Shown: positions 50,234 through 64,000 of the stretch, in pieces | Layout of the letters: every line of letters begins with the position of its first letter | Position numbering within the stretch: the first letter of the stretch is position 1 | NCBI GenBank assembly: GCA_018303825.1 | Contig: JAGVXK010000018.1 | Location: 5,840 to 69,839 of the forward strand | Source: Candidatus Pacearchaeota archaeon | Lineage (GTDB): Archaea; Nanobdellota; Nanobdellia; Pacearchaeales; GW2011-AR1 | Direction of reading: 5' to 3' | Length of the DNA stretch: 64,000 nt | Translations under genes and position numbers: made by a program | The notes under the pieces: model-generated | Databases searched by the model: none | Seen by the model: the letters and a program-made list of their open reading frames with translations, nothing else | What the model was told of the DNA's origin: nothing

Positions 50234-53200
50234 TGGCCTTTAGAAAAGCCCAGGGAAAGCTAAGGTTCATTAGTGAAAGGACGATGGTCAATAAATTGTT
50301 GATGTTGATGTTAATTGTTATAATTGGATTGGTACTTGGAGCTAATTATGTGGGTGCGGATTATACTTCTTCATTCGCAGGATATGGCAGCAGCTATTCA
50401 AGCGCAAGTTATCAATACCAACCAAGCTTTCAGACTTACTATGGAAATGATGTGAATACTTATTGGCCCATATTAAATGATAAAGATGTCTGCAAAGCAA
50501 GGCAGGATATGCTTTTACAAGTATCACCTGCAGGATGCCAGCCAATGGTTGTGAGAAGCGATTTATTGGCTGATCAGAATGTGCCGGTATTTTGCCAGAT
50601 TGATGCACTGCAGGTTAATCCTTTGATTGACATAAAAGAAATCAAAAACATAAATTTCAGAGGAAATTATCCCAAAGAAGTTGCAGGAGTTGGATTTCAT
50701 CCAGCAAGGGCTGCATTGAATACAAGAGACAGGCTTCTAGGAAGTCCATTAATAAATAACATTGGATATGTGGTAGTTATCCTTAAACAAACTAAGAACG
50801 AGAGCTCATTGCCTAAATTCGTTAATCTGACTTTGACTGGAAAGTTAGAATATAATGCAGGAAATGCATATGGAATAGGCACAAATGAATTTTATCTTGA
50901 GCCTACAGATGATAATCAATGGGAAAATGCGAAGATCGCGAATAGTTTTTGGAATGGAAGATATTTCATAAGATTATATGATGTCGATGAAACTTCTGCT
51001 TTAGTCTCGATATATGATGGGGACAGGGAAATTTCTAAGACGAGAATAAAACTTGGAGAGACTTCAGCTCCAATGTATCTTCCTGGAAGTTACTGTTCTT
51101 TTGGTCTGACGACAACTTATACAGGGCTTGCACAGTCTGATAAAAAAGCCAGAATAGAGATAAGCGATGAAAAAGGAACAAATAATCTTGATGTTTATCA
51201 GGGAAGCGAGTTTTTGAATGGAAGATGCAGAGTGAGCGAGATATTAGTAGATTCACAGACAGGAAGCACGGGAAGTGTAAAGATTGCATGCGATAGTGAT
51301 TTGATAAAATTGGAAATGAGGCCAAATCTATATGTTGAGAATCTGCCGTATGGAAGAACAAGTTTCAATGACATAGGAGCGAATAAGCAGGAATGCAAAG
51401 TTGATTTCAACGATGAAAAGAGTTATAGAATAACAAGAGATGTGGTTAAGGAAGCCAGCGGTGATTCTTATAGTTCCTGGACTACTTTGGAGATTTACAG
51501 TAATGATAAAAAAGATTGGACAAGTAGTTTCAGCTTGGATGATGCAACTAAAGACAAGATAAGGAATGCACTTGCGAATGCATGTGATTTCAGAGATGAT
51601 AAATTCTTGACTTCTGATGGAAAAACAGTCAATGATGTTGCAGAGAAAGCGTTCAATGATGCAATTGATTCATATGAAGAAGTTGCGAAGGATTATACTT
51701 CTGAGAGACAGGCTGCTACAGAGGGAGTTGCCAGATATGGAGAACTGGCATTAAGAGCTGCTCTTGATTTGGTTCAAGAGGCAACTTCAAAGAATTACGC
51801 AAAGAAGGAAACAAAATCAAGGTTATTGAATTTGTTCATTAGTTTATATCCTGAGAGTGCAAAGTTATATCAGAGCCAGAGGGATGCACTATATCAATTA
51901 GATTCTAGTATCTCAACTAAATCTGTGAATGTCGATAATAAGTTCAGGACAATAAGACTTGTAAGCTTAAATAATCCTGAAAGCGCAAATGAAAAGGCGA
52001 AGGCTAAGTTTACTTATGGCGGCAGAATTCTTGAATTAGTTAAAGGAGAAGCTAAGCCATTAAAGACAAATGCAATGATTAATGTCACAAGCTTCGATGC
52101 TTTGCATGCAACTATAAGAACCAACTGCGTTACAAAGGATAATGGATATGAAATAAAGACTGAAAGCGGGAAGCCAGTCTATCAGTCTTCTATAACTCTC
52201 AGCCTTGGAGAAAGCGAGAATGTGTGCGGAGAGCCTCTTGTCTTCAAAGATACTGATTTGAAGAAAGTTGCTAAGATAAGAATCAGCCCTACTGCGTATG
52301 GCCCTGAAACAGAGACAAATATATCTGTCAAGATTGGAATTGAAAAGAGAGCAATACAATTGAGTCCTGAAAAGACAAAAGATATGATTCTTAATATAAA
52401 TAAGAGCATACAAAAATGGGAAAGCATTTCAAAGAGTTTAGTAAAGGTAGAAACAGGGTTGAAGGCAGCTTGTTTTGCAACTTCTGCTGTGCTGACTGTC
52501 AAGACTTTCCTTTATGGGATAGATGGAACTGCCACCGCAAGACAGAAAGTGATGACTGGAGATTATGGGTGGAACAAGAGATGCAACGATGCGATAACTA
52601 AGAAGTGGCTTGATGTAAATGCAAATGGTGGAGAATTTGAACAGGGAATAGACAAGAATGTTAATTATGGAAGCATAATACAATGCATAAATGATAATAC
52701 TGCATCAATTGAAAAGGATGTTCAAACTACGAAGAATGCTCTGGTAGATACAAATAAAGTTGTGAAGGTTGCTCAGGATAGCGCCACCACTAAGGGAATA
52801 TTAAATCAAGATTTGGCTACCAAGGCAATGATAGATAAAATAGGAGCAGACTGCAAGCAATTTATAGAATTGCTTCCTGCAGTTGTTAGAGATTCAAAGA
52901 CTACAATTTATCCAGTTACATTATCTCAATCTAGAGATATTTATGCGAATTGCCTGATGCTGAAACAGAATCCGAATGATCAGAATGCTCTTCTTTCTAT
53001 GAAATCATTTTCAGAAAATGCGAAAAATACAATGACAGATTATGAGAAATTTGCAAGGTCTCAGGCATCAAATGATATTCTCCCTATAAATACTGGAACT
53101 GGAACAGCATTGAAAGGGAAGTTCTACCCAATTGTAGGAAATACCATTGGAGAAATACCAGTAAGCGGGGCGAGCATACCAGCAGGAGCAACTCATGCAG

Positions 53201-56200
53201 TAAGATTAGATAATCCCGCAACTATAGAATATGATAATGGCATCTGGGGCAAAGTATCTATTGGAGCACCATTTATAGTTGTTGGAACAGAATTGAATGG
53301 GAAGTTGCGACCTCTCGATGTATTCAAGTATGAACCTAAGTTTGAAAATGGAAAAGTGACTTCTGCAGTTATTTCTCAGATACCAAGTGAGAGTTATCAG
53401 GGTTCTAGTGGTGCTAGTTTGTTTATGTCAAAAAATGGCTATACAGGATTTGAAGAATTCGGGCAAGGACTTTATGGAAATACTATAAGAGAACAGGACA
53501 GAGCAGTATTATATTTTATATCTGGGCCCGATAAGGATTTGCCAAGCCAGGTTCCATTTGATGTTAACAATGGATGGTATGTAAAGGTTCAGGCGAGTTC
53601 ATTTAGTCTTGGGAGCAATGCAGTAAAGAGTTATGATGCTTCTGGATTGCCTAAAGACTGGCAGATATGCAATGTTGGAAGCGATGGAATGATAGGAAGT
53701 AATGATGATTGCCAGGCATTTAATCAGGCTTCTCTTGGAGCTACTATTCTTGGATTAGATGCAAAAACTTCGCAGGATTTGGTGCAGAAGTCCCAAAAAG
53801 CAATTTTGGATGCTGCTTCTCAAAAGAATACAAATACAAAACAAGTGAGCATATTTGGGCAGCCAATGAGAGTTGATTTCCAGAATCCAATGGAGAATGT
53901 ACAATGCTCTAACTTTATGACTGCCGGAGATTGTAAATTATTATTCAATGTCTGCGACCCAGTTATATGTCCTGCGAGCAGATGCAATCTTGGAGGGGCT
54001 TATAGGGTAGCGAATGTTCAACAGACAGGAATTGTGGGCTCTGCATTATTGTGTTTGCCAAATGCAAGAGAAGGAATTCTTCTTCCTGTTTGCGTTTCGG
54101 GAATTAGAAATGGAATCGATGCTTATGTTTCTTTATTGAAACAACATAGAGATTGTTTACAGCAGAATTTAGACACTGGAGAATTAGTTGGAGTTTGCGA
54201 TGAAATACAATCTATTTATACTTGCGAGTTCTTCTGGAGACAGGTGGCTCCTATTGCTAGTATGTTATTGCCTAAATTGGTTGAAAATGTTTATTCTGGA
54301 GGACAGGGAACAGGTGTTAATGGGGGAGGAGAATATTTATTCGTTCCTCAAGCATGGGATAATGCAAAGAATAGCATGGACTACTTTACTAATTATTATG
54401 CGGAGAATACATTTAAAGCATTCCAAATAAGAAGTGTTGAAGAAGCAGGAACAGAAGTTTGCAGAGGATTTGTTTCTTTGAAAGCTCCAACATCTATAAA
54501 GACTTTATTAGAACCGGATAGTCCTCCTCAGTTTTATGCAAGATTTGATTCAACCACTTTCTCGACGGTAACTGTGCCTGCCACTGCACAGTATAAAGTA
54601 TTTTACTTTATCAATGCAGGAAATGATGCAGGAGTTTATTATTCAGTTTATTTGAAGAGTCCTCCTGAATCAGGATATTATTATTCAAATCCAACAATTC
54701 AGATAGCAAATGGATATATTTCTAAAGGACAAAGTTCGAGTCAGACTTTGGATAAGACTGCTCCTGAAGGATATAAAGAGCTATGTGTAAGAATAAATAA
54801 TGAAGAAGAATGCGGGTTCAAACAGGTTTCAACAGACTTCAGCGTAAATTATCTTAGAGACCAGTACGCAAAAGACCAGCTTACTAACACAAATATTCAA
54901 ACTCAGGCAGAATGTGTATCTGGAACATCTAGTCTTGCAGCTGTTGGGGCTAATTTGAACTTGCAGTCTGCCGCTCAGGAGGCGGCAATGCCTGATATTT
55001 CTCAGAGAGGGATAGTAAGAATATGTGCAACATTGAATCCTGGAGGTAGCACAGACCCTACAAGATATATTCCTGTTGGAATTTGCGGCGATGCTAATTT
55101 GAAGTGCTGGCTCGACAAGACAAGTGTAAACAATGCAATAACTGATGCTAATCTCGGAGTGAAGAATGCAACCTTACAAGAGTTAGAGCAAACGAATATT
55201 GATGCTCTTATTGCACAAGGAGAAATTCTAAATAATGAAGTGGCTGTTTCAAGCATAAAAGAAATAAATAACAGAAAAGATATTTTAAGGGCGAATTTAG
55301 ATTCTAATAAGAATATTATCAGCGATGCACAAGCCTTGGAATTGTCAATTAATGATTTGTATGGCAAGCTGGTATTGAATAATCATAAGGCATGGCTGTT
55401 GCTTATAAGGGCTGAGGTAAAAGCAATGGAAGCTGAATATTATATGAAGAATATAGCTACAAAGACATTACCTTTAAGCAGAGTCAGCAGCACAACAACC
55501 GCTGGAATAACACAAACACATAGCATAAGTTTTGCCCAGGATATAGATGCTGCAACAGGAATGGATGTCACAAGAATATTTATAGATAGAAACCCTGACA
55601 GTTATTATTATATCTATAATGATCCTGAAAGAGGAAATATATTATACACTAATAAAATAAGTGGACCAAATACTCAAGAAGATAATCAGGTTGGAACAGT
55701 AGACAGAAGCAATATAATACAAGTTTATGCGAGTTATGCAGGAGATACAGATTTAAGCGTAATAAATGGGCAGAGATTAACATTTGATAATTCTGGAATT
55801 CCGCAAGCATTAACAGTGAAAACAACTGCTCCTGCGGCGTCAGCAGCTGCAACAACTGCAAATGAATTAGTATTTACTTTCCAAGATGGCACAATTTCTT
55901 GGAACTTAGAATATAGATTTCACAATGGTAAATGGCAGGCTACAAATGGGGGTGTACTTACAACAATACCTAATCCTTTACCACAAAGTTATAGAGATGC
56001 GTTTACTGCTACCACTGTTGCAAGTATGGAAAAACTTTCTAAAGCAAGTTCGCTTCAGGAAGGATTGAAGATATTAATAGATAGAACATTGGCAAATAAT
56101 GAAGGAGGATGGTTTGCAAATACTGATTTACTTGCTGGCAAATTCGATTTGGATAGTAAGGGAGAGTTTACAAGTTCTTCTATTAGTGGGATTAATTCCA

Positions 56201-56388
56201 TTTATCGATATGGTTCGAATGGGTGGGAATATTATGCTTCAGGCACAAATCGTGTCTGGATTCCGGTAAAGGATTTAGTTATTTCTAAGGATAAGATGAA
56301 TCTTGTTTTTGACAGTGATAAGACTCTTGTTAATCAATTATCAAATCAAGATTTCTATGGTGGTGCGTTGATATTGTTTAGTTCTTAA
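50233..56388 (+). CDS. Giant surface protein (2051 aa), function unknown
   Basis: Uninterrupted 6.1-kb ORF in AT-rich DNA. N-terminal TM or signal MVNKLLMLMLIVIIGLVLGANYVGA. Cys-rich, hydrophobic core near 53900-54300. TAATG overlap with the upstream gene. Confidence 0.75.
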   Translation: MAFRKAQGKLRFISERTMVNKLLMLMLIVIIGLVLGANYVGADYTSSFAGYGSSYSSASYQYQPSFQTYYGNDVNTYWPILNDKDVCKARQDMLLQVSPAGCQPMVVRSDLLADQNVPVFCQIDALQVNPLIDIKEIKNINFRGNYPKEVAGVGFHPARAALNTRDRLLGSPLINNIGYVVVILKQTKNESSLPKFVNLTLTGKLEYNAGNAYGIGTNEFYLEPTDDNQWENAKIANSFWNGRYFIRLYDVDETSALVSIYDGDREISKTRIKLGETSAPMYLPGSYCSFGLTTTYTGLAQSDKKARIEISDEKGTNNLDVYQGSEFLNGRCRVSEILVDSQTGSTGSVKIACDSDLIKLEMRPNLYVENLPYGRTSFNDIGANKQECKVDFNDEKSYRITRDVVKEASGDSYSSWTTLEIYSNDKKDWTSSFSLDDATKDKIRNALANACDFRDDKFLTSDGKTVNDVAEKAFNDAIDSYEEVAKDYTSERQAATEGVARYGELALRAALDLVQEATSKNYAKKETKSRLLNLFISLYPESAKLYQSQRDALYQLDSSISTKSVNVDNKFRTIRLVSLNNPESANEKAKAKFTYGGRILELVKGEAKPLKTNAMINVTSFDALHATIRTNCVTKDNGYEIKTESGKPVYQSSITLSLGESENVCGEPLVFKDTDLKKVAKIRISPTAYGPETETNISVKIGIEKRAIQLSPEKTKDMILNINKSIQKWESISKSLVKVETGLKAACFATSAVLTVKTFLYGIDGTATARQKVMTGDYGWNKRCNDAITKKWLDVNANGGEFEQGIDKNVNYGSIIQCINDNTASIEKDVQTTKNALVDTNKVVKVAQDSATTKGILNQDLATKAMIDKIGADCKQFIELLPAVVRDSKTTIYPVTLSQSRDIYANCLMLKQNPNDQNALLSMKSFSENAKNTMTDYEKFARSQASNDILPINTGTGTALKGKFYPIVGNTIGEIPVSGASIPAGATHAVRLDNPATIEYDNGIWGKVSIGAPFIVVGTELNGKLRPLDVFKYEPKFENGKVTSAVISQIPSESYQGSSGASLFMSKNGYTGFEEFGQGLYGNTIREQDRAVLYFISGPDKDLPSQVPFDVNNGWYVKVQASSFSLGSNAVKSYDASGLPKDWQICNVGSDGMIGSNDDCQAFNQASLGATILGLDAKTSQDLVQKSQKAILDAASQKNTNTKQVSIFGQPMRVDFQNPMENVQCSNFMTAGDCKLLFNVCDPVICPASRCNLGGAYRVANVQQTGIVGSALLCLPNAREGILLPVCVSGIRNGIDAYVSLLKQHRDCLQQNLDTGELVGVCDEIQSIYTCEFFWRQVAPIASMLLPKLVENVYSGGQGTGVNGGGEYLFVPQAWDNAKNSMDYFTNYYAENTFKAFQIRSVEEAGTEVCRGFVSLKAPTSIKTLLEPDSPPQFYARFDSTTFSTVTVPATAQYKVFYFINAGNDAGVYYSVYLKSPPESGYYYSNPTIQIANGYISKGQSSSQTLDKTAPEGYKELCVRINNEEECGFKQVSTDFSVNYLRDQYAKDQLTNTNIQTQAECVSGTSSLAAVGANLNLQSAAQEAAMPDISQRGIVRICATLNPGGSTDPTRYIPVGICGDANLKCWLDKTSVNNAITDANLGVKNATLQELEQTNIDALIAQGEILNNEVAVSSIKEINNRKDILRANLDSNKNIISDAQALELSINDLYGKLVLNNHKAWLLLIRAEVKAMEAEYYMKNIATKTLPLSRVSSTTTAGITQTHSISFAQDIDAATGMDVTRIFIDRNPDSYYYIYNDPERGNILYTNKISGPNTQEDNQVGTVDRSNIIQVYASYAGDTDLSVINGQRLTFDNSGIPQALTVKTTAPAASAAATTANELVFTFQDGTISWNLEYRFHNGKWQATNGGVLTTIPNPLPQSYRDAFTATTVASMEKLSKASSLQEGLKILIDRTLANNEGGWFANTDLLAGKFDLDSKGEFTSSSISGINSIYRYGSNGWEYYASGTNRVWIPVKDLVISKDKMNLVFDSDKTLVNQLSNQDFYGGALILFSS

Positions 56389-56495: not shown

Positions 56496-56521
56496 CATAT
56501 GTATTATTTTTACATATGCTA
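56493..56521. promoter_or_regulatory. Perfect 11-bp inverted repeat TAGCATATGTA-n7-TACATATGCTA, candidate ArsR operator
   Basis: Read directly. Lies between the TATA-like box and the ArsR gene; the right arm contains the start codon. Confidence 0.55.
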
Positions 56522-56890
56522 CAAAGATACATATTAGAGCATGCTCATAAACATGGATTGTCTGAGAATGAGATTTATTTCACATATAAAATCTTTTTTG
56601 GCACGCTTGTTTCAGAGTCGAGATTAAGGATAATCAATCTTTTGAGAAGTGGGGAAAAGAATGTCTCAGAGATAATAAAAGAATTGAATATGAATCAATC
56701 AAATGTATCGCATGATCTTTTCAGGCTAAAAAAATGTGGTTTTGTACTCGTTGAGGCTAAAAAGCAATATAGATATTATAAGCTTAATGAAAAGACAATT
56801 AGACCACTTATGGCTTTGATAGATAAACACATGGCCGAATATTGCATCCACATATTCAGAGCAGACAAGGAGACTAAAAATGGAGAATAA
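56516..56890 (+). CDS. ArsR/SmtB-family winged-helix regulator
   Basis: RLRIINLLRSGEKNVSEIIKELNMNQSNVSHDLFRLKKCGFV. Confidence 0.8.
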   Translation: MLQRYILEHAHKHGLSENEIYFTYKIFFGTLVSESRLRIINLLRSGEKNVSEIIKELNMNQSNVSHDLFRLKKCGFVLVEAKKQYRYYKLNEKTIRPLMALIDKHMAEYCIHIFRADKETKNGE

Positions 56891-57371
56891 AAATGTTGGA
56901 TGGATGTTATTAGGAATATCTGTTGTAATAGGAGTATTTATCTTTTTATTCAATAGCACATTGATGGGGGCTGTAAAAAATGCCTGTTTTATACAGCACG
57001 GAGATTTCAAATCTTGCGAGATGTATGACAGTGTGAATTATCAGACTTATTTTGCTCTTGGTATCACGGGTATAATGGTAATTGTCAGTTTGTTTCTGAT
57101 ATTCTCGAAGTCGAACGAAAAGATAATAGTCAAGAAAGTAAAAGAGAAGAAGATTCAAAAAGAAGTCAATCTTTCATCTTTTAGACCTGAAGAAAAGCAA
57201 GTTTATAATCTTGTCAAAGAAAATGGTGCTATTTTTCAGGGAGATTTAATTGAAAAGACTGAATTTAGCAAAGCCAAAATGACAAGGATTGTTGACAAAC
57301 TTGAGGGCAGCGGTCTTGTGGAAAGAAAAAGAAGGGGCATGACGAATGTTGTCGTGCTAAAGGAAGATTAA
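56880..57371 (+). CDS. Membrane-anchored MarR/TrmB-like winged-helix protein
   Basis: Two N-terminal TM helices flanking CFIQHGDFKSCEMY. C-terminal EKQVYNLVKENGAIFQGDLIEKTEFSKAKMTRIVDKLEGSGLVERKRRG. Confidence 0.6.
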   Translation: MENKNVGWMLLGISVVIGVFIFLFNSTLMGAVKNACFIQHGDFKSCEMYDSVNYQTYFALGITGIMVIVSLFLIFSKSNEKIIVKKVKEKKIQKEVNLSSFRPEEKQVYNLVKENGAIFQGDLIEKTEFSKAKMTRIVDKLEGSGLVERKRRGMTNVVVLKED

Positions 57372-57386
57372 TAAGATGGAGAAATC

Positions 57387-57629
57387 ATGAAAGAAAAAGA
57401 AAGCAATATTGTCCTTGCAGTAGTGATTGTTTTAGTTATCTTGTTATTTTTTGGAGGATTTGGCATGATGGGTTTTTGGGGAGCAGGAATGATAAGTGGA
57501 TTTTTTGGTGGATTTGGGTTTATGTGGATATTTGGATGGATGATTACGATATTAATATTAGTGGCTCTAATCCTATTCATTTTGTGGTTAGTTAAACAGT
57601 TACAAGGAGGTAAAAAGAAAAATGGGTGA
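57387..57629 (+). CDS. Small Gly/Phe/Met-rich membrane protein
   Basis: GGFGMMGFWGAGMISGFFGGFGFMWIFGWMI. Confidence 0.45.
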   Translation: MKEKESNIVLAVVIVLVILLFFGGFGMMGFWGAGMISGFFGGFGFMWIFGWMITILILVALILFILWLVKQLQGGKKKNG

Positions 57630-57885
57630 TAAATTAGATGCGAAAAAGGCAGGATTAGCTTTGGCTATTGTAGCAGGTATTGCTTATATTGCCTGTGCGA
57701 TATTAGTTGCAGTTGCGCCGCTGGGAACAGTCAATGTGCTCGGGGCCTTATTTCATGGGATAGATATAAGCGAGATAGCAACTACACCAACTCTTGGAAG
57801 AACATTTTTGGGATTGATTGAGATATTTGTACTTGGTTATATTCTCGGCTGGTTGTTCGGAGTTATTTACAATAAAATAAAGTAG
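57622..57885 (+). CDS. Small membrane protein (DUF5676-like, from memory)
   Basis: 87 aa, two or three TM helices. ...AYIACAILVAVAPLGTVNVLGALFHGIDISEI. Confidence 0.4.
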   Translation: MGDKLDAKKAGLALAIVAGIAYIACAILVAVAPLGTVNVLGALFHGIDISEIATTPTLGRTFLGLIEIFVLGYILGWLFGVIYNKIK

Positions 57886-57929
57886 TTTTGCGAACATTTA
57901 TATTTGTTATTTTTTATATATTTGCAAAG

Positions 57930-58643
57930 ATGACAGAATTAAGTAATTTTTTTAATCCTTGGATGGTATTTAGCATGATATTTTTACTAATTTGGATTAT
58001 ATTTTTTGTTTTCGCTAAAAAATCGAGGAAAGAGATGTTTTTGACAAGCATTCTAACAGCTCCATTTGGTTTAACAGAGATTTTATTTGTTCCCGAATAT
58101 TGGAACCCTCCATCTTTATTCAATCTCGCAGCAAAAACACGATTTGATATAGAAAGCATAATATGGTGTTTTGCTGTCGGAGGAATTGCAGCAATTTTAT
58201 TTGAATCTATATTCAAAGTAAGACACATTAAAATGAAGGACAAAGAGAGGCATAAAACAAGGCATAAATGGCACTTATTTACTTTAATATTGCCAATTCC
58301 AGTATTTTTAATTTTATTTTTCACTACATCACTAAATCCTATCTATACTTCAAGCATTTCAATGCTTGCTGGTGCAATTGGCTCACTCTATTGCCGTCCT
58401 GATTTAAAGAGAAAAATACTTTTTGGAGGTTTGTTATTTTTAGTTTTGTACTTTATAGCTTTCTTTTTGCTCGTTTTATTTTATCCAGGAATAGTAGAAA
58501 GTGTCTGGAACTTAAATGCTATATCTGGAATTCTTGTTCTTGGAGTGCCGTTAGAAGAATTAATATTTGCATTTACTTTTGGCATGATGTGGAGCAGCGT
58601 TTATGAGCATATTAGATGGTATAAATTATTGAGTTACCATTAA
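57930..58643 (+). CDS. Polytopic membrane protein
   Basis: About 7 TM helices. VPLEELIFAFTFG weakly recalls the PxEE motif of lycopene-cyclase-domain proteins. ATG at 57930 preferred. Confidence 0.4.
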   Translation: MTELSNFFNPWMVFSMIFLLIWIIFFVFAKKSRKEMFLTSILTAPFGLTEILFVPEYWNPPSLFNLAAKTRFDIESIIWCFAVGGIAAILFESIFKVRHIKMKDKERHKTRHKWHLFTLILPIPVFLILFFTTSLNPIYTSSISMLAGAIGSLYCRPDLKRKILFGGLLFLVLYFIAFFLLVLFYPGIVESVWNLNAISGILVLGVPLEELIFAFTFGMMWSSVYEHIRWYKLLSYH

Positions 58644-58731: not shown

Positions 58732-59454
58732 ATGGAACACGAAAAATATCATGCTGAAGAGCATGACGATATGAAAGGAGGAAAAAAGTCCAACACTGAG
58801 ACTACAGTCCAGTATGTTATAATTGCGGTGCTTGTGATCTTACTTATTTACAGTGGAGTAAAGATATACGGAGCGGGCAGTTCTAGCATATCAGGAAATG
58901 TCGCTATGGATTTAGGCACAGTTTCTGCTTTAGATGTATTGCCAAAGGGAACACCTGCTGTTTATGGAAAAGAGCTTGGAGTATCATATAATGATGTCTC
59001 TGTAAGCAATCCGCAATTAGCAGATGCTACAATGCAAAAACTGGCAAAATATGAGGATATGCAATTAAATAGCGCGCAAATGGAGAGATACATAAGAATT
59101 GGGAGCTCGATTGCATGTGAGTATTGTTGCGGTGCTCAAACACTTGTCTTTGAGAATGGAGAAAGAGCTTGTGGATGTGCTCATAGTTATGCTATGAGAG
59201 GATTAGCAAAATATTTGCTAACTAAGCATCCCGATATAAGTGATATAGAAATCCTAAACGAACTAGGGAAATGGAAAGTTTTGTTCTTCCCAGGAGTTCA
59301 CGAGCAAAAAGCTGAAGTTTTGAAAGCAAATGGAATTGACTACACAAATCAAACTGTAGGATATATCTATCTTGCCTCAAACATATACCGGGGCGCAGAA
59401 AATCAGGCAACTGCAAGTTCAAGCGGAGGTAGTCAGATGGTTGGCGGATGCTAA
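58732..59454 (+). CDS. TM-anchored extracytoplasmic protein with CxYCCG...CGCxH motif and C-terminal MVGGC
   Basis: His-rich N-terminus MEHEKYHAEEHDD, one TM helix, CEYCCGAQTLVFENGERACGCAHS. Ends SSSGGSQMVGGC*. Confidence 0.65.
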   Translation: MEHEKYHAEEHDDMKGGKKSNTETTVQYVIIAVLVILLIYSGVKIYGAGSSSISGNVAMDLGTVSALDVLPKGTPAVYGKELGVSYNDVSVSNPQLADATMQKLAKYEDMQLNSAQMERYIRIGSSIACEYCCGAQTLVFENGERACGCAHSYAMRGLAKYLLTKHPDISDIEILNELGKWKVLFFPGVHEQKAEVLKANGIDYTNQTVGYIYLASNIYRGAENQATASSSGGSQMVGGC

Positions 59455-59514
59455 TAGGGGCTTTTATTTTTTTATTTTTCCCTTAGCATACAATTAAATA
59501 AAACAAGAGAAAAA

Positions 59515-59763
59515 ATGGATTGCTGTAATACAAAACAAAACACAAAGAAAGAAAACAGAGAAGAAAACATGAAAGGAGGTAGGGACATGACAAAGATTAA
59601 CAAAAATGTTCTGCTGTGGATTATAATTGGAGCACTAGTGATAGCCACAATATTCCTGACATTTAAAGCTTCATCGATAGGTACAAGTTCCGCACAAGCG
59701 ACAGCGTCAGCTGCCAGAACCGTAGCATCAACTGCATCTAGTGGAATGGTCGGAGGTTGCTAA
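59515..59763 (+). CDS. Small TM-anchored protein ending in MVGGC
   Basis: MDCCNTKQ...MKGGRDMTKINKNVLLWIIIGALVIATIFLTF, Ser/Ala/Thr linker, ends ASSGMVGGC*. Alternative start at 59569. Confidence 0.6.
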   Translation: MDCCNTKQNTKKENREENMKGGRDMTKINKNVLLWIIIGALVIATIFLTFKASSIGTSSAQATASAARTVASTASSGMVGGC

Positions 59764-59770
59764 AATTAAT

Positions 59771-60022
59771 ATGGAAATAAGAAAAAGCACATTATTATGG
59801 ATTGCAATCGGAGTATTGTTTTTAGCAGTGCTTTTTTTGATGTATAAAGCATCAACTATCTCTGGAAACGCAGTTTCTAGTTCTGGAAAGCTAGATACAA
59901 GTAGTTGGTCAGAAAATGAAAAGATGAATTATGAGATGCATGGAACAATTCCTGCAAGACTGCAAGGAAAAGTAGCATCATCTAGTGCATCAAGCGGAGC
60001 GGGAATGGTCGGAGGATGCTAA
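59771..60022 (+). CDS. Small TM-anchored protein ending in MVGGC
   Basis: MEIRKSTLLWIAIGVLFLAVLFLMYKAS..., ends SSASSGAGMVGGC*. The track start at 59741 overlaps the previous gene in another frame and was not used. Confidence 0.6.
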   Translation: MEIRKSTLLWIAIGVLFLAVLFLMYKASTISGNAVSSSGKLDTSSWSENEKMNYEMHGTIPARLQGKVASSSASSGAGMVGGC

Positions 60023-60079
60023 CAAAATTTAAACTTTTTATTTTTATTTTTTAATTTAATATTGAGAATTAAACACAAA

Positions 60080-60637
60080 ATGATAAAGATGAACATACGA
60101 AATAAGCAAGATAAAAACTATAAATTATTTGGATTTTTAATTTTAATACTATTCGGGATAATCACAGTTATACCTGGTGTTATGGCTCATTGCCCTCTTT
60201 GCACTGCAGCTACGGTCATTGGTGTAGGGGTAACAAGATCACTAGGATGGGATGATTCTATTGTAGGAGTATTTATAGGAGCAATGATAGTCTCTTTAGC
60301 TTTATGGGTGAATAATCTGCTAAAAAAGAAAAATATTGGAGGAGGCAATGCCATTCTAAGAATAATTAGCATAGTATTGCTTACCATTGCTCTTACCTTT
60401 TTGAGCTTTTATTATGCAGGAATATTCGGTCCAGCTAACATTTATAGGATATTCGGTATGGAGAAGATTACTTTTGGTGCAATATCCGGAGGCGTCGTAA
60501 GCTTGGCTACTTTTTGGATTAGCAATGAAATAAAGAGAAAGAACAATGGAGATGTTTTGTTCAATTATCAGACTATGGCTATTACATTTAGTGCATTGAT
60601 ACTTAACGCTTTAATATTTTGGATGGTGTTCAGATGA
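60080..60637 (+). CDS. Polytopic membrane protein with CxxC at the first TM helix
   Basis: VMAHCPLCTAATVIGVGV. Five predicted TM helices. Confidence 0.55.
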   Translation: MIKMNIRNKQDKNYKLFGFLILILFGIITVIPGVMAHCPLCTAATVIGVGVTRSLGWDDSIVGVFIGAMIVSLALWVNNLLKKKNIGGGNAILRIISIVLLTIALTFLSFYYAGIFGPANIYRIFGMEKITFGAISGGVVSLATFWISNEIKRKNNGDVLFNYQTMAITFSALILNALIFWMVFR

Positions 60638-61131
60638 AAACTAAAAACTTCATTAAAATAATACTTAAGATAAAAGAAAAGAATGAACTAGATTTATCAG
60701 CAGGAGAAGATTTAAGCATAGCCTTAATGAATCTTGTAAGCCTGGAAGAGCATTCTTTCTTTAGTTATGTCAAAACAAAAGATGAAAAGTTTCTTGAGAT
60801 ACTTGAAACATGCAGAGAATTAAGAAAAAGACTGCTTGCTAAATTAGTCAACAAAGATGAGAGCGAGACATGGTGCATGAGCAAGCACTTACTTGCTTCC
60901 AGCATGAGGATGTATGAAATCGGGAACAGACTCTTACATGAAAATAATATTGAAGAAGCTAAAAAATTATATACGGATGCAGCAGAACTATATGCTCTAT
61001 TTTGGAAACTTAATTTTGATAAAAATATGAGCAAGAAAGATACAATAAAGAGTTATGTGAGCTATAAAGATAAAGAAAAGAAGAGTGTTTTCTCTGGAAT
61101 TAAAAAACTGTTGGAGTGTTGTAAAGAATGA
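60634..61131 (+). CDS. Soluble helical protein ending in a CC pair
   Basis: ATGA overlap with the upstream gene. ...ALMNLVSLEEHSFFSY... Ends KKLLECCKE*. Confidence 0.5.
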   Translation: MKTKNFIKIILKIKEKNELDLSAGEDLSIALMNLVSLEEHSFFSYVKTKDEKFLEILETCRELRKRLLAKLVNKDESETWCMSKHLLASSMRMYEIGNRLLHENNIEEAKKLYTDAAELYALFWKLNFDKNMSKKDTIKSYVSYKDKEKKSVFSGIKKLLECCKE

Positions 61132-61583
61132 AAGAACATCACTATAATTATTTGTGGGCTGGAATTATATTAATATCTATACTCGGAACTTTCTTTCTAA
61201 TTAAGATGACTTATGCCAATCCTCTCAATCTGCCAAATTATGCATTTACTAAACAGGCTATAAAGGAAGCTTATTCGTATGCAAAATTAAATGAAAGTGA
61301 ACTTGACGGATTGCCTTGCAATTGCGGATGTATGATTGACGTAGCAGGTCATAGCGATGGATTACATTCAAGAGGATTGATAGATTGCTTTATGCAGGGA
61401 GATATAAACAATGGAGGCAAATGGGATAGTCATGCAAGTGAATGCGGATTATGTTATGAAGATGCGCTTTATGCAAAAAATCTGTATGAACAGGGAAAAG
61501 CCAAAGAAGATATTAAGCAAGCATTAGAAGCAAAATATGTGGCACAGACAATAAGCAACAACACAGTTTATGGGACAAAATAA
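61128..61583 (+). CDS. TM-anchored PCYCGC-motif-family-like protein
   Basis: LPCNCGCMIDVAGHSDGLHSRGLIDCF...HASECGLCYEDA resembles PCYCGC-motif (lipo)proteins (PF13798, from memory). Confidence 0.6.
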   Translation: MKEHHYNYLWAGIILISILGTFFLIKMTYANPLNLPNYAFTKQAIKEAYSYAKLNESELDGLPCNCGCMIDVAGHSDGLHSRGLIDCFMQGDINNGGKWDSHASECGLCYEDALYAKNLYEQGKAKEDIKQALEAKYVAQTISNNTVYGTK

Positions 61584-61584
61584 A

Positions 61585-61785
61585 ATGAATCATAAAGAAA
61601 AACACAATCATGGTATTGGGCATATGATAAAAATGGCTTTAGCCTGCATTATACCTTTCGCAATTATCCTTATACTCCTGCTTTTTGGCGTATCAAGTAA
61701 ATGGACAACAATTTGGGCTATCGGACTCATGATATTTCTTCATGTCTTGATGATGAAAGATCATTTTAGAGGAGACCCAAAGTAA
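61585..61785 (+). CDS. DUF2933-like His-rich small membrane protein
   Basis: MNHKEKHNHGIGHMIKMALACIIPFAIILILLLFG...LMIFLHVLMMKDH. Confidence 0.55.
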   Translation: MNHKEKHNHGIGHMIKMALACIIPFAIILILLLFGVSSKWTTIWAIGLMIFLHVLMMKDHFRGDPK

Positions 61786-61788
61786 AAA

Positions 61789-62214
61789 ATGGAAATTAAG
61801 AAATCTATTGTGTATGGAATATTGTCTGGATTAGGAATACTTTTATTCTTCCTTGCTATTTTAACTACATTTAAAGGTTATGGAATTGCAGTATATGAAT
61901 TCAAAAGATTATGGTATTGGCTTATCCCTTTGGCAATAGGTTTTGGAACTCAGATTGGCTTATATTTCTCAATAAAACACGATGCCATTATGAAAGCAGG
62001 AGTTAAGGCATCTGGGACAGTTTCTGGAGGTTCTATGGTTGTTTGCTGTAGCCATTATCTATTAAGCATAATTCCTATAATTGGCGTAACAGGGCTAACA
62101 GAGTTTTTAATGGCTTATCAAAAAGGATTTTTTGCCATAGGAATTACTTCAAGTATAGCTGGAATTCTCTTGATGTTAAATCATAAAAGAAAGATGAAAG
62201 GAGGATTATGCTAA
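61789..62214 (+). CDS. Four-TM membrane protein with intramembrane SGGSMVVCC motif
   Basis: GTVSGGSMVVCCSHYLLSIIPIIG. The vicinal Cys pair recalls MerT/MerF-type transporters, by analogy only. Confidence 0.5.
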   Translation: MEIKKSIVYGILSGLGILLFFLAILTTFKGYGIAVYEFKRLWYWLIPLAIGFGTQIGLYFSIKHDAIMKAGVKASGTVSGGSMVVCCSHYLLSIIPIIGVTGLTEFLMAYQKGFFAIGITSSIAGILLMLNHKRKMKGGLC

Positions 62215-62505
62215 ATGGAAGAGAAAGAGACAATACATATCAATGGAAAAGTAATCGGCGTAATAGTTATTTTATTGCTTCTTGTATCAGGCACTTTTTG
62301 GATATTCATTCTTCAAAAACAAGCTCATACCTCGCCAAATACGGGCGGAAACAGCAATACTGGTTTGACAACTGCTCCAGCGGATGATAAATATAGTAAT
62401 TTACCTGAGAAATGCAGACCACCGGCAGGAACAGATATAACCCAATGGAAAGAACATTTAGGGCATCATGCGGAATTTCAAGAGTGTTTAAAATATTTCC
62501 CATAG
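62215..62505 (+). CDS. TM-anchored small protein with Cys/His C-terminal domain
   Basis: One TM helix, then ...EKCRPPAGTDITQWKEHLGHHAEFQECLKYFP. Confidence 0.45.
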   Translation: MEEKETIHINGKVIGVIVILLLLVSGTFWIFILQKQAHTSPNTGGNSNTGLTTAPADDKYSNLPEKCRPPAGTDITQWKEHLGHHAEFQECLKYFP

Positions 62506-62514
62506 AAATTTAAA

Positions 62515-62736
62515 ATGCATAAACTAAAAATAAAAATAACTGGCTTGTATTGCGCAAGATGTGCTGAACAAATCTCTAAAATGATGTATGAGAAATTCAA
62601 AATAAAAAGGATAAACTTAGAAATGCAAGACCATATAATGGTTATATCCTCAAATTCAAGTATATTGCGGGGCAGATTAAATAAAGAGATAGAAAAGATG
62701 GGTTACGGCCCGATTAGCTTTTTGAAAGTTGACTGA
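62515..62736 (+). CDS. Heavy-metal-associated (HMA) domain protein
   Basis: MHKLKIKITGLYCARCAEQISK: a CxxC in the position of GMTCxxC within a 73-aa beta-alpha-beta-beta-alpha-beta-sized protein. Confidence 0.65.
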   Translation: MHKLKIKITGLYCARCAEQISKMMYEKFKIKRINLEMQDHIMVISSNSSILRGRLNKEIEKMGYGPISFLKVD

Positions 62737-63158: not shown

Positions 63159-63728
63159 ATGGCTAAAGGCAATAATCAAGATAGTGTTGTTTCTGATGAA
63201 GAGAATGAAAGAATAGCAGAATTAATTAGATATTCTGAGAATCTTGGATGTTATTTTGAAAAAAATTCTTTAGATTACGACACTATTAATTTTCTTGCTG
63301 TTGGAAAGGTAATTGCCTGCTTAAATCAATATCGGGGAAGAAATGGTGCGGATATTAGGACTATGCTACGCACAGCGGTATATAGGGGATTTATTGATGT
63401 TCATAGAAGAAGAAGTAGGGAAGTGAGCCTTGATGAAGTTGATTCTGATGGAAGAAAAAAATTTGATTTTGACGAGGAATCTCGTTTAGATCAAAGAAGG
63501 GATTCATATCAGAGAGATTTTCTTTTAGAAAATGTGATAAGGGAAGCGATGTCAAAATTACCTCAAAGGCATAGAACTATCTTAGAATTAAGATTTTATC
63601 AGGGAATGACTTATTCTGAAATTGCCAGACTATTAGGTAGGAAGCAGTCAACTATAGGAACAAATATCTATTATGGTATAAAAAATCTTAAGAGGATATT
63701 AGCTGGTAAAATTGATTTTAGAAGTTAA
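63159..63728 (+). CDS. Bacterial-type sigma-70/ECF-like protein (regions 2 and 4)
   Basis: Region-4-like LPQRHRTILELRFYQGMTYSEIARLLGRKQSTIGTNIYYGIKNLKRIL. Region-2-like RTAVYRGFIDVHRRRSRE. Confidence 0.6.
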   Translation: MAKGNNQDSVVSDEENERIAELIRYSENLGCYFEKNSLDYDTINFLAVGKVIACLNQYRGRNGADIRTMLRTAVYRGFIDVHRRRSREVSLDEVDSDGRKKFDFDEESRLDQRRDSYQRDFLLENVIREAMSKLPQRHRTILELRFYQGMTYSEIARLLGRKQSTIGTNIYYGIKNLKRILAGKIDFRS

Positions 63729-64000
63729 TTATTTCTTGGCAGATGCCTTCTCTGTGGCTGCAACTTTTGCCTTTAATTTATCCTCAAAGCCAAGCCTGTC
63801 TATAAGTTCTTTGTATCTATTTCTGATTGTGACTTCTGTTATGCCTGCTACGTCTGCTACTTCTCTCTGTGTTTTCTTTTCATCATTCATCAATGCTGCT
63901 ACATATAATGCGGCTGCTGCAATGCCCGCCGGACCTCTTCCTGATGTCAACTCTGAGATATCTGCTTTCTTTAGAATCTTAAGAGCTTCATTCTGTGTTT
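63729..64000 (-). CDS. tfb: Transcription initiation factor TFB, C-terminal part (gene continues beyond window end)
   Basis: ...[54 protein letters not shown]. The frame stays open to position 64000. Confidence 0.9.

Follow-up and report, generated by a model that had tools for sequence, protein, structure and literature searches.

A cysteine-tailed set of large and small membrane proteins, apparently shared by DPANN archaea and some CPR bacteria

Why do three adjacent membrane-anchored proteins of one archaeal genome end in the same five residues, with a cysteine in last place? The question arises from 64 kb of a Candidatus Pacearchaeota contig (hereafter the window, meaning the whole stretch of DNA analyzed), in which we found 100% identity to the hypothetical proteins J4217_03010 and J4217_03020. 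An earlier note, made from the sequence alone, had described three neighboring ORFs with a common TM helix and linker layout, each ending in MVGGC-stop. We rechecked sequence and codons, and the description was borne out, with the coordinates of the ORF listing unchanged:

58732..59454, + strand: ORF1 ("Ta", large tail protein), 240 aa, ending ...SGGSQMVGGC-stop
59116..59184, + strand: Cys5-His centre of ORF1, C-E-Y-C-C ... C-G-C-A-H, residues 129-151
59437..59454, + strand: tail 1 (ORF1), ATG GTT GGC GGA TGC TAA
59515..59763, + strand: ORF2 ("Tc", minimal tail protein), 82 aa, starting MDCC, ending ...ASSGMVGGC-stop
59746..59763, + strand: tail 2 (ORF2), ATG GTC GGA GGT TGC TAA
59771..60022, + strand: ORF3 ("Td", small tail protein), 83 aa from the ATG, ending ...SGAGMVGGC-stop
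60005..60022, + strand: tail 3 (ORF3), ATG GTC GGA GGA TGC TAA

ORF1 comprises a His-rich cytoplasmic N terminus, a single TM helix (approximately residues 26-43), a helical extracytoplasmic domain, a Ser/Gly linker and MVGGC-COOH; its six cysteines lie at positions 129, 132, 133, 147, 149 and 240. In ORF2, the MDCC N terminus is followed by a TM helix, a Ser/Ala/Thr linker without further cysteine and the tail. ORF3 consists of a TM helix, the conserved Met/His core of Td proteins (D-T-x-G-W-[ST]-E-N-E-K-M-N-Y-E-M-H-G-T-I-P-A-R), a linker and MVGGC-COOH, and its sole cysteine is the final residue. An upstream GTG at 59741 is also a possible start for ORF3 in the ORF listing; the database orthologue P0121 begins at the ATG. 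All three ORFs combine an N-terminal TM helix and an outward C terminus with the last residues [MQ]-V-G-[GSADE]-C. Across the 64-kb window, GTNGGNGGNTGYTAR matched three times, once at the end of each of these ORFs and nowhere else; shuffles gave an expectation of 0.04 matches.

We then followed the tail beyond this locus. The database held 2268 relatives of ORF1, forming 274 clusters at 50% identity, and nearly all full-length members end in [LM]P-x-[MQ]-V-G-G-C-COOH. Across the family, which is detectable down to ∼30% identity, the terminal cysteine does not vary and is in every case the final residue; in the ORF1 family alignments, V-3 is kept in at least 90% of sequences and G-2 is invariant. 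The methionine is replaced by Gln in 27 of the 150 best representative clusters and by Trp in a few, together about a quarter. It is therefore not essential, the core of the tail appears to be V-G-x-C-COOH, and since Gln or Trp can take the place of Met, the tail by itself offers no more than one thiol as a ligand. Methionine is no obligatory part of the Met-x-Gly-Gly-Cys ligand set proposed in the earlier note.

Scanning species-representative genomes with a DNA pattern placed the tail in at least ∼95 loci. The 120 loci listed by the scan are a lower bound, and about 20 of them, in unrelated bacteria and typically in ORFs of 5-30 aa, match by chance. Among the matches listed, the hosts are nearly all DPANN archaea, together with some CPR bacteria and one Desulfobacterales record. 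Operons typical of DPANN also occur in certain records named "uncultured Methanosarcinales" or "Nealsonbacteria", and these names may be binning or naming artefacts. The earlier note had taken a lack of recurrence outside this locus as grounds for dropping the idea; the tail was found elsewhere, and that objection falls away.

Could the shared ending have arisen by chance, through faulty annotation or by a recent duplication of DNA? Nothing but the shortness of the motif speaks for such an origin, to which we assign virtually no probability and which is refuted by three window matches against 0.04, by thousands of homologues that end alike, and by synonymous encoding. In the related loci listed, at least 189 MVGGC tails are written in at least 80 distinct 15-nt strings; the stop codon follows the cysteine directly in 189 of 189, and all three stop codons are used. 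This diversity argues for selection on the peptide, as the earlier note had proposed, and not for a DNA copy. In the fetched loci, 185 of the 191 GGC-ending ORFs came from the one T family set, so that the tail appears to occur only in this set; a generic sorting or processing tag, the second of which the earlier note had also considered, is for the same reason unlikely.

The tail did not prove to be peculiar to three paralogues, but is part of a pair of large and small proteins, the large one with a Cys5-His domain to which the earlier note had not drawn attention. Among the loci listed, a small tailed gene lies directly downstream of 64 of the 73 large genes that have room downstream; two tailed genes were counted in at least 65 loci and three in at least 13. 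The order ORF1-ORF2-ORF3, a large Cys5-His protein and then two small tailed proteins, matches this proposed T family set. ORF1 therefore appears to be a large member, and ORF2 and ORF3 small members, of a set of membrane proteins not described before; judging by the sequences, the set is shared by DPANN archaea and some CPR bacteria, with Desulfobacterales represented by at least one record. In 107 small proteins, a TM helix was found in 102, the linker is 52% S+G+A+T, and the terminal cysteine is the only extracytoplasmic cysteine (0 others). Their N termini contain 3.4 K/R compared to 1.4 in the 15 residues past the TM helix. From the TM and K/R counts, the T proteins are predicted to be single-pass, N-in/C-out; their cytoplasmic N termini are His-rich or carry CC.

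In the large-protein family, C129, C132, C133, C147, C149, H151, G238 and C240 (ORF1 numbering) are invariant. AF2 modeled ORF1 as a helical protein, with a pLDDT of 87.4. Its final 20 residues have a pLDDT of 74-79, which is above expectation for a free low-complexity tail and is only suggestive. Foldseek of this confident model against the PDB gave a best E-value of only 1.7 and no match, and a sequence-profile search of the PDB likewise gave none; the Cys5-His domain is thus a putatively new helical domain without a match among solved structures. In Pfam and NCBIfam scans, neither ORF1-3 nor a sample of 112 family members gave anything above noise. Neither the MVGGC ending nor the T family set is described in Pfam, NCBIfam, the PDB or the literature searched, in which queries on the tail variants, the ORF1 CEYCCG, the Td core, DPANN copper or C-terminal cysteine found nothing relevant, in keeping with the earlier note's failure to recognize the ending from any described family.

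Variants of the large protein bear on what the tail might do. Three tail-less large proteins (L084, L098 and L113) still have a tailed small neighbor, as if the arm were supplied in trans. In two Uhrbacteria large proteins, the Cys tail is replaced by G-H-x-T-H-G-G-A-G-x-D-G-M-H-G. The Cys5-His domain and tail are fused to a CPxC multi-TM domain in L012, L105 and P0357, and there is an FKBP_C fusion.

The tail genes of the window sit in a larger cluster:

56516..56890, + strand: ArsR-family regulator, head of the cluster
56880..57371, + strand: membrane-anchored MarR-type winged-helix regulator, Cys 36 and 46 between two hydrophobic segments
60062..60637, + strand: six-helix CPLC membrane protein, with an invariant H-C-P-L-C directly behind its first hydrophobic segment
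60619..61131, + strand: 170-aa protein without TM helix, ending LLECCKE
61128..61583, + strand: TM-anchored PCYCGC/CYCXC-family protein (PF13798, E 5e-16)
61570..61785, + strand: His-rich 2-TM mini-protein, recurrent in related loci
61789..62214, + strand: multi-TM protein with the SGGSMVVCCSHY motif (CC-S-H-Y family), ending KGGLC
62215..62505, + strand: 96-aa TM protein, W-K-E-H-L-G-H-H ... E-C near its end
62515..62736, + strand: weak HMA-like protein, CxxC (C-A-R-C), E 0.0035, below the Pfam cut-off

Several of these neighbors recur. Among the loci listed, the membrane MarR-type regulator adjoins Ta in 30 of 44; the family of the 60062 protein lies downstream in 24 of 44 Ta loci and was found in at least 33 loci in all. 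Every one of the 207 homologues of this CPLC protein is annotated as hypothetical, and its fold assignment was abandoned, with an AF2 pLDDT of only 70.6 and no meaningful Foldseek match. A [DE]CC[KR]E(W) ending occurs in 17 of 19 members of the 60619 family. The CC-S-H-Y family of the 61789 protein is a conserved operon partner (at least 28 loci) that ends in KGG(L)C and is usually paired with the 62215 protein; neither it nor the CPxC membrane domains matched Pfam. The SGGSMVVCC string that the earlier note had pointed out is present in the 61789 product, but its likeness to the tail is by itself weak evidence. A 2051-aa Cys-rich surface protein is encoded just upstream of the tail genes; tblastn found neither DUF411 nor a thioredoxin-repeat protein in the window.

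Elsewhere, two types of operon that carry the pair can be told apart. Type-A operons contain CopG/DUF411, membrane proteins with CPxC and partners with a terminal CC; of the partners that can be identified, CopG/DUF411 is found most often (in 20 of 44 Ta loci, among the loci listed). CopG is reported to aid anaerobic Cu resistance via a CxCC-bound tetranuclear Cu cluster (PMC7558416). Type-B operons have the order Tb - Tc - thioredoxin-like CxxC repeats - CcdA, frequently with a TM-anchored thioredoxin-like protein that has a CxxT active site, and include lipoproteins with true N-terminal lipoboxes as well as small lipoproteins ending in G-G-G-C-G. They hold no unambiguous metal gene and, by gene content, look like a redox pathway. 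Raw counts in 100 real loci were 24 for DUF411/CopG-like, 13 for GMxCxxC HMA, 12 for P-type ATPases and 8 for YHS.

We tentatively propose that the tail is a swinging arm whose thiol may pass a soft, Cu(I)-like metal between Cys centres outside the membrane, a reading that we consider quite possible. We infer the movement of the arm, its docking on Cys centres and the identity of its cargo. The flexible Ser/Gly/Ala tether would hold one reactive thiolate a few nanometres above the membrane, beside a free carboxylate and often a Met thioether. The arm could then reach the Cys-rich centres of its partners: the CxxCC...CxCxH of the large subunit, CPxC membrane proteins (60062 in the window) and the CopG/DUF411 or thioredoxin-like/CcdA proteins of related loci. 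The cargo would most likely be a thiophilic metal ion, acquired outside the cell and handed over by ligand exchange, and the thioredoxin-like/CcdA module might keep the arm thiols reduced. We favor a metal because the neighbors include ArsR, PCYCGC and HMA-like proteins in the window and CopG, P-type ATPases and YHS elsewhere, and because the N termini are His-rich or CC, Td has its Met/His core and partners end in CC or GG(L)C. The soft-metal hand-off to membrane CC/CxxC proteins suggested in the earlier note is consistent with the same genes and with the CPxC neighbors. More broadly, the MVGGC-COOH proteins, the Cys5-His domain and the CPxC and CC-S-H-Y membrane proteins might make up an unrecognized extracytoplasmic thiol machine shared by DPANN and CPR, which we regard as possible, with some doubt.

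Alternatively, the cargo of the same arm may be disulfides or electrons. In a pure thiol-disulfide relay, the terminal cysteine would make transient mixed disulfides and shuttle electrons among Cys5-His, CPxC and thioredoxin-like/CcdA proteins, perhaps as an extracytoplasmic oxidative-folding, isomerization or reducing pathway for quinone-poor ultra-small cells. Such a relay would operate in the manner of the C-terminal CGC arm of Erv2p or the GCUG arm of mammalian thioredoxin reductase. An arm with a single cysteine fits this chemistry, as do the type-B gene order, often with the CxxT protein, and the Cys-rich surface protein just upstream in the window; the FKBP fusion points to protein folding and against the metal reading. 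The lack of an unambiguous metal gene in type-B operons and of DUF411 in the window also counts against a metal. We nevertheless judge both the relay and this role for it rather unlikely. CC and CxC motifs, typical of metal-thiolate sites and not of disulfide catalysts, are what the partners carry in place of CxxC; the cytoplasmic ends are His-rich or CC; and the neighborhoods contain genes for CopG, YHS, HMA and P-type ATPase proteins. We saw no evident terminal oxidant or flavin/quinone site, and the ORF1 model matched no Erv, DsbB or VKOR structure. The swap to a His/Met tail in Uhrbacteria would keep metal ligation but not disulfide chemistry, and therefore favors a metal.

The remaining readings give the tail a more local part. 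It could mainly be an internal ligand or lid, serving to complete or to gate a metal or Fe-S site at CxxCC...CxCxH of the large protein, while the small proteins compete for or regulate that site and carry no cargo; tail and six-residue centre are co-invariant, the pLDDT of the tail is moderate and the small genes adjoin the large one. We find this decidedly unlikely, as proteins with only a TM helix, linker and tail are equally conserved, often two per operon, and certain large proteins have no tail. Invariance at the extreme C terminus also recalls sorting signals, and a processing or attachment tag, with the cysteine lipidated or cross-linked to the envelope as a second anchor, would suit the true lipoproteins of type-B operons and a sequence, M-V-G-G-C, that we take to match the loose PROSITE lipobox pattern. 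Such a tag is very unlikely: besides the restriction to one family set, the proteins are already TM-anchored, a hydrophilic linker and not a hydrophobic h-region precedes the tail, no TM or basic segment follows it, unlike in LPXTG, PGF-CTERM and GlyGly-CTERM, and the tabulated neighborhoods show no conserved candidate for a sortase, peptidase or transferase. By analogy with SoxY, in which a Gly-flanked cysteine sits on the C-terminal arm of an extracytoplasmic protein (PMC5336275), the arm might instead carry sulfane sulfur (persulfide or polysulfide), and small lipoproteins ending in G-G-G-C-G would be in line with this. Here, however, we found no SoxY/SoxZ domain and, in the window and the tabulated neighbors, no gene of the sox, dsr or rhodanese kind, and the ORF1 model is helical, not an Ig-like sandwich. 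To our knowledge, DPANN and CPR are not sulfur oxidizers, and we hold a sulfur carrier to be most improbable.

A large part of microbial diversity belongs to DPANN and CPR, and the majority of the conserved surface proteins in these groups are without an assigned function. A five-residue curiosity has become a defined module in many genomes, with a new domain built on a six-residue centre, partner mini-proteins and two operon types. Should the arms prove to carry copper or disulfides, they would account for the way in which cells that lack a periplasm, quinones or the usual Cus/Dsb systems guard or fold a Cys-rich surface. The thiol machine, if real, might fill a gap in ultra-small, quinone-poor cells as their missing system for metal detoxification or disulfide handling at the surface. 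It would cross the domain boundary between DPANN archaea and CPR bacteria and work with minimal carriers.

How does the set compare with known systems? Several candidates were rejected. Beta-grasp precursors (QbsE, ThiS, MoaD), of which the earlier note was reminded by the GG-Cys end, are ruled out because the T proteins are anchored by an N-terminal TM helix, have an outward, extracytoplasmic C terminus, are helical in the model and match no such family. LPXTG, PGF-CTERM, GlyGly-CTERM and PEP-CTERM signals are excluded by the stop directly after the cysteine, with no TM or basic cluster beyond it, and a sorting signal on many unrelated cargoes by the 185 of 191 ORFs in one set and the lack of a conserved peptidase or sortase in the neighborhoods. 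CaaX prenylation requires Cys fourth from the C terminus, and here it is last; an N-terminal lipobox is incompatible with a C-terminal motif behind a hydrophilic linker; and for the HMA metallochaperones (PF00403, GMxCxxC), ORF1-3 gave no match and G-M-V-G-G-C has a single cysteine.

Closer likenesses lie among the neighbors. The PCYCGC (PF13798)/CYCXC protein at 61128, four genes downstream, is TM-anchored and extracytoplasmic with clustered C-x-C and then His, but lacks a cysteine tail. Homology to ORF1 was rejected: 0 of 112 Ta/Tb members matched PF13798 at E<=1, profile-profile comparison with hhalign gave a probability of 1% and BLASTP E = 18, and ORF1 is not in CYCXC (NF041379), whereas its neighbor does match the PCYCGC family. 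CopG/DUF411 is likewise an extracytoplasmic Cys-cluster (CxCC) protein linked to anaerobic copper resistance; it is a neighbor and not a homologue, is absent from the window, and has a thioredoxin-like fold, in contrast to the helical Ta model.

As for mobile arms, in SoxY the cysteine of a C-terminal GGCGG arm carries pathway intermediates (PMC5336275). Like the T proteins, SoxY is extracytoplasmic with one functional cysteine in a Gly-flanked flexible C-terminal peptide, and its arm swings into partner sites; unlike them, it is a soluble beta-sandwich with a SoxZ partner and has Cys third from the end. The T proteins are TM-anchored, helical or domain-less, and end on the cysteine (V-G-G-C-COOH, not G-G-C-G-G); no SoxY family was found in ORF1-3 by Pfam or NCBIfam, and no SoxZ or sox gene nearby. 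The C-terminal CGC arm of Erv2p and the GCUG-COOH arm of mammalian thioredoxin reductase are flexible redox arms that connect a buried Cys centre to partners. Both are flavoenzymes with a dithiol or selenenylsulfide pair, without a structural match to the Ta model. The Mer relay comprises the CxxC of MerP, the TM CC pair of MerT and the C-terminal CC arm of MerA. Profile scans of the window detected no Mer family, and the T set differs in its one-Cys arm and in partners from uncharacterized families; what it may share with Mer is the exchange of a thiophilic metal between Cys pairs outside, within and inside the membrane, and a flexible C-terminal Cys arm. If the swinging-arm reading is true, the T proteins add to these systems a very small kind of carrier, consisting of an anchor, a tether and one thiol.

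Re-reading the open reading frames of the window, we recovered the three adjacent genes and the architecture that the earlier note had described, and the five codons of the tail (the C-terminal MVGGC) differed synonymously exactly as it had given them.

58732-59454: ORF1, 240 aa; His-rich N-terminus, one transmembrane (TM) helix at about residues 26-43, outward domain, end ...SGGSQMVGGC
59515-59763: ORF2, 82 aa; MDCC start, TM helix, Ser/Ala/Thr linker, end ...ASSGMVGGC
59771-60022: ORF3, 83 aa from the ATG that is the start in database orthologues; TM helix, end ...SGAGMVGGC

The degenerate pattern GTNGGNGGNTGYTAR matched three times in the 64-kb window, always at the ends of ORF1-3 (0.04 matches expected from shuffles). 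The source genome is a Candidatus Pacearchaeota (DPANN), and the hypothetical proteins J4217_03010 and J4217_03020 are 100% identical to ORF1 and ORF3.

The MVGGC ending proved far more general than was visible from the window alone. It terminated 116 of the 120 best of 2268 ORF1 relatives (E ≤ 0.01) and 116 of the 120 best of 134 ORF3 relatives, which also share the core D-T-x-G-W-T-E-N-E-K-M-N-Y-E-M-H-G-T-I-P-A-R. An exhaustive HMMER search covering 1.84 billion representatives returned 274 ORF1-related clusters; among the best 150, 106 ended in GGC (MVGGC 69, QVGGC 27), MVG[ASDE]C and WVG[DE]C variants occurred, and the remainder were mostly fragments. The consensus is [LM]P-x-[MQ]-V-G-G-C-COOH. 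Residues C129, C132, C133, G143, C147, C149, H151, G157, P187, G238 and C240 were invariant in a 112-sequence alignment, and V237 was kept in at least 90%. Together, cluster ends and alignment indicate that the Met is dispensable, unlike the Val, the terminal Cys and the Gly at the second position ahead of that Cys.

A pattern search for recurrence beyond the locus, as the earlier note had proposed, revealed the tail to be widespread in DPANN archaea and present in some CPR bacteria. Scanning species-representative genomes for G-M-V-G-G-C-stop gave at least 120 loci, and about 95 of the 120 listed contained genuine TM-anchored ORFs. Nearly all genuine loci among these were labelled Woese-, Pace-, Nano-, Aenigm-, Micr- or Iainarchaeota; CPR bacteria were represented by Paceibacterota, Uhrbacteria, Peribacteria and the Patescibacteria group. 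Burarchaeum, Magasanikbacteria and one Desulfobacterales MAG came in addition from cluster look-ups; the 51-kb tail-bearing contig of this MAG has typical bacterial genes. Records named 'uncultured Methanosarcinales' or 'Nealsonbacteria' (L002, L006, L040, L055, L063, L079, L109, L114; L014/L119) have typical DPANN-type operons, so that their names may stem from misbinning or mislabelling. The 189 MVGGC tails in the listed loci were encoded by 80 distinct 15-nt strings and followed by TAA (146), TAG (26) or TGA (17), which argues for selection on the peptide, as had been proposed from the window, and for a true stop codon.

Within about 0.9 Mb of fetched sequence, the tail is borne by one family set only (T): 185 of 191 GGC-ending ORFs belonged to it, and the other six were chance. 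Its large members carry a Cys5-His centre (C-E-Y-C-C...C-G-C-A-H, residues 129-151 of ORF1).

Ta: ORF1-like, ending ...Y-R-G-I-E-x-G-x-x-S-G-G-MVGGC
Tb: Cys5-His domain as in Ta, ending ...L-P-G-MVGGC
Tc: ORF2-like; TM helix, linker and tail, nothing else
Td: ORF3-like; Met/His core
Fusion: Cys5-His domain and tail joined to a multi-TM CPxC domain (L012, L105, P0357)
Fusion: Cys5-His domain and tail joined to an FKBP domain (P0291, P0515)

The Desulfobacterales locus (contig DRHF01000376.1, L121 7075-9416) encodes a 471-aa FKBP_C, Cys5-His and MVGGC protein; the gene two positions upstream specifies a secreted DUF1573 protein that also closes on Gly-Cys (...K-P-I-E-G-C).

Among 107 small tailed proteins, 102 had a TM helix, and the K/R count was 3.4 before the helix versus 1.4 after it, indicating an N-in/C-out topology. 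Their linkers were 52% S+G+A+T, and in all 107 the last residue was the only Cys beyond the helix; a cytoplasmic N-terminal CC pair occurred in 17 of the 107 Tc-type proteins. On the outside of the membrane, the tail presents a single invariant thiol as the free tip of a flexible tether. The ORF1 domain was modelled by AlphaFold as mostly helical (pLDDT 87.4, pTM 0.76); Foldseek (best E 1.7) and a sequence-profile search found no match in the PDB, and no Pfam family was found in any of 112 large members. Sequence comparison ruled out kinship of ORF1 with the nearby PCYCGC protein. Three Ta proteins in the listed loci have no tail, each beside a small neighbour that retains it. In two Uhrbacteria Tb proteins (L042 5671-6387, L066 1223-1996), which keep the Cys5-His centre, G-H-x-T-H-G-G-A-G-x-D-G-M-H-G stands where the Cys tail would be; both genes again adjoin one for a small protein that has the Cys tail.

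In the listed loci, a small tailed gene lay directly downstream of the large one on the same strand in 64 of 73 cases with downstream room; 65 loci had two tailed genes and 13 had three, as does the window. Two operon types, A and B, recurred. Type A, to which the window belongs, is usually ordered as follows.

1: membrane-anchored MarR regulator, two Cys between its two hydrophobic segments
2: Ta
3: Tc and/or Td
4: DUF411/CopG (20 of 44 listed loci; absent from the window)
5: H-C-P-L-C membrane protein (24 of 44 listed loci)
6: 170-aa protein or CxxC membrane protein, each ending E-C-C-K-x-(W)
7: CC-S-H-Y membrane protein, ending K-G-G-(L)-C

Frequent companions are DUF5676, a His-rich 2-TM protein, Met-rich proteins and YHS proteins ending C-C-H. 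The window set is flanked by an ArsR regulator, the PCYCGC protein and a weak HMA-like protein, and we noted the following neighbours.

50233-56388 (+): 2051-aa protein with many Cys and an N-terminal TM or signal segment, probably a giant protein of the cell surface; its gene immediately precedes the metal/thiol cluster
56880-57371 (+): MarR-type winged-helix regulator, two N-terminal hydrophobic segments with Cys 36 and 46 in the loop between; homologues adjoin Ta in 30 of 44 listed loci; might sense thiol-reactive signals from outside as a one-component regulator
57387-57885 (+) and 57888-58643 (+): three genes between the regulators and ORF1, for an 80-aa Gly/Phe/Met-rich membrane mini-protein, a DUF5676 2-TM protein (E 9e-21; DUF5676 in 12 related loci among those listed) and a lycopene-cyclase-domain protein (PF18916, E 2.5e-18)
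60619-61131 (+): 170-aa partner ending LLECCKE; 17 of 19 relatives end [DE]CC[KR]E(W), and the alternative CxxC protein ends ECCKKW in 12 of 13
61789-62214 (+): CC-S-H-Y membrane protein ending KGGLC
63159-63728 (+): 189-aa protein with sigma-70 region 4 (PF08281, E 3e-13; weak ECF match); a bacterial-type sigma-like protein is unusual for a DPANN archaeon
63729-63950 (-): adjoining 3' end of a TFIIB gene, at the window edge

Type B runs Tb - Tc - thioredoxin-like CxxC repeats - CcdA, often with a TM-anchored thioredoxin-like protein with a CxxT active site and a small lipoprotein with G-G-G-C-G. The former (L006, L028, L032, L043, L076 and others) has a VKOR-associated-type domain with mostly W-C-Q-Y-T; a few members keep W-C-x-[YH]-C. 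The lipoproteins (L006 4243-4374, L028 781-948, L032 3778-3951, L109 333-530 and others) combine an N-terminal lipobox, a Pro-rich linker and P-I-G-G-G-C-G at or near the C-terminus; lying between Tb and the thioredoxin-like gene, they are a second type of tethered, Gly-flanked Cys.

The tail was always accompanied by proteins with clustered Cys motifs, and was sometimes fused to them. We reasoned that the terminal-Cys tether would act as a swinging arm reaching into the Cys centres of its partners, the simplest mechanism to use the invariant thiol, the tether, the Cys-rich partners and the fusions together. We ranked lower the readings in which the tail serves the Cys5-His centre as an internal ligand, marks the protein for lipidation or attachment, or carries sulfur in the manner of SoxY. 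The main rival is an arm serving purely as a thiol-disulfide relay, to which the type B operons and the FKBP fusion point.

We favour a thiophilic, Cu(I)-like metal as the cargo. Partner motifs are CC, CxC and CxCC, whereas disulfide catalysts have CxxC; the cytoplasmic ends bear His-rich stretches or CC pairs, and Td and some Tb proteins have Met/His motifs, all of which favour such a metal. So does the Uhrbacteria His/Met-rich Gly tail, which keeps metal ligation and cannot keep disulfide chemistry. The loci also contain genes for CopG/DUF411, YHS proteins, GMxCxxC proteins and P-type ATPases (24, 8, 13 and 12 per 100 listed loci, respectively), consistent with the same cargo; CopG is reported to aid anaerobic copper resistance via a CxCC-bound Cu4 cluster (PMC7558416). 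In such a metal-carrying arm, the thioredoxin-like/CcdA module would hold the thiols reduced. The earlier note's metal-capture idea is supported in part: the Met is not needed, and the unit consists of a large protein, with its new Cys5-His domain, and a small one.

The tail lacks the defining features of an LPXTG/PGF-CTERM-type sorting signal and of a CaaX box, as do the T proteins those of the HMA domain and the PCYCGC protein. A likeness to beta-grasp sulfur carriers, raised earlier, also failed on the defining features of those carriers. The earlier note did not recognise the motif from any described family, and searches of Pfam, NCBIfam and the PDB, and of the literature open to searching, yielded no description of it or of the T families. 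It is possible, and we hold this tentatively, that the T set is a distinct DPANN/CPR-wide system of its own. By analogy, the nearest functional counterparts would be C-terminal cysteine arms. MerA ends in CC, Erv2p has a C-G-C tail and thioredoxin reductase a G-C-U-G end. SoxY has the arm G-G-C-G-G (PMC5336275), to which the P-I-G-G-G-C-G of the lipoproteins is close. T proteins stand outside these four families in domain, fold, Cys position and gene context, and we rate the set, on analogy, as falling among the thiol carrier arms of extracytoplasmic metal or redox handling.
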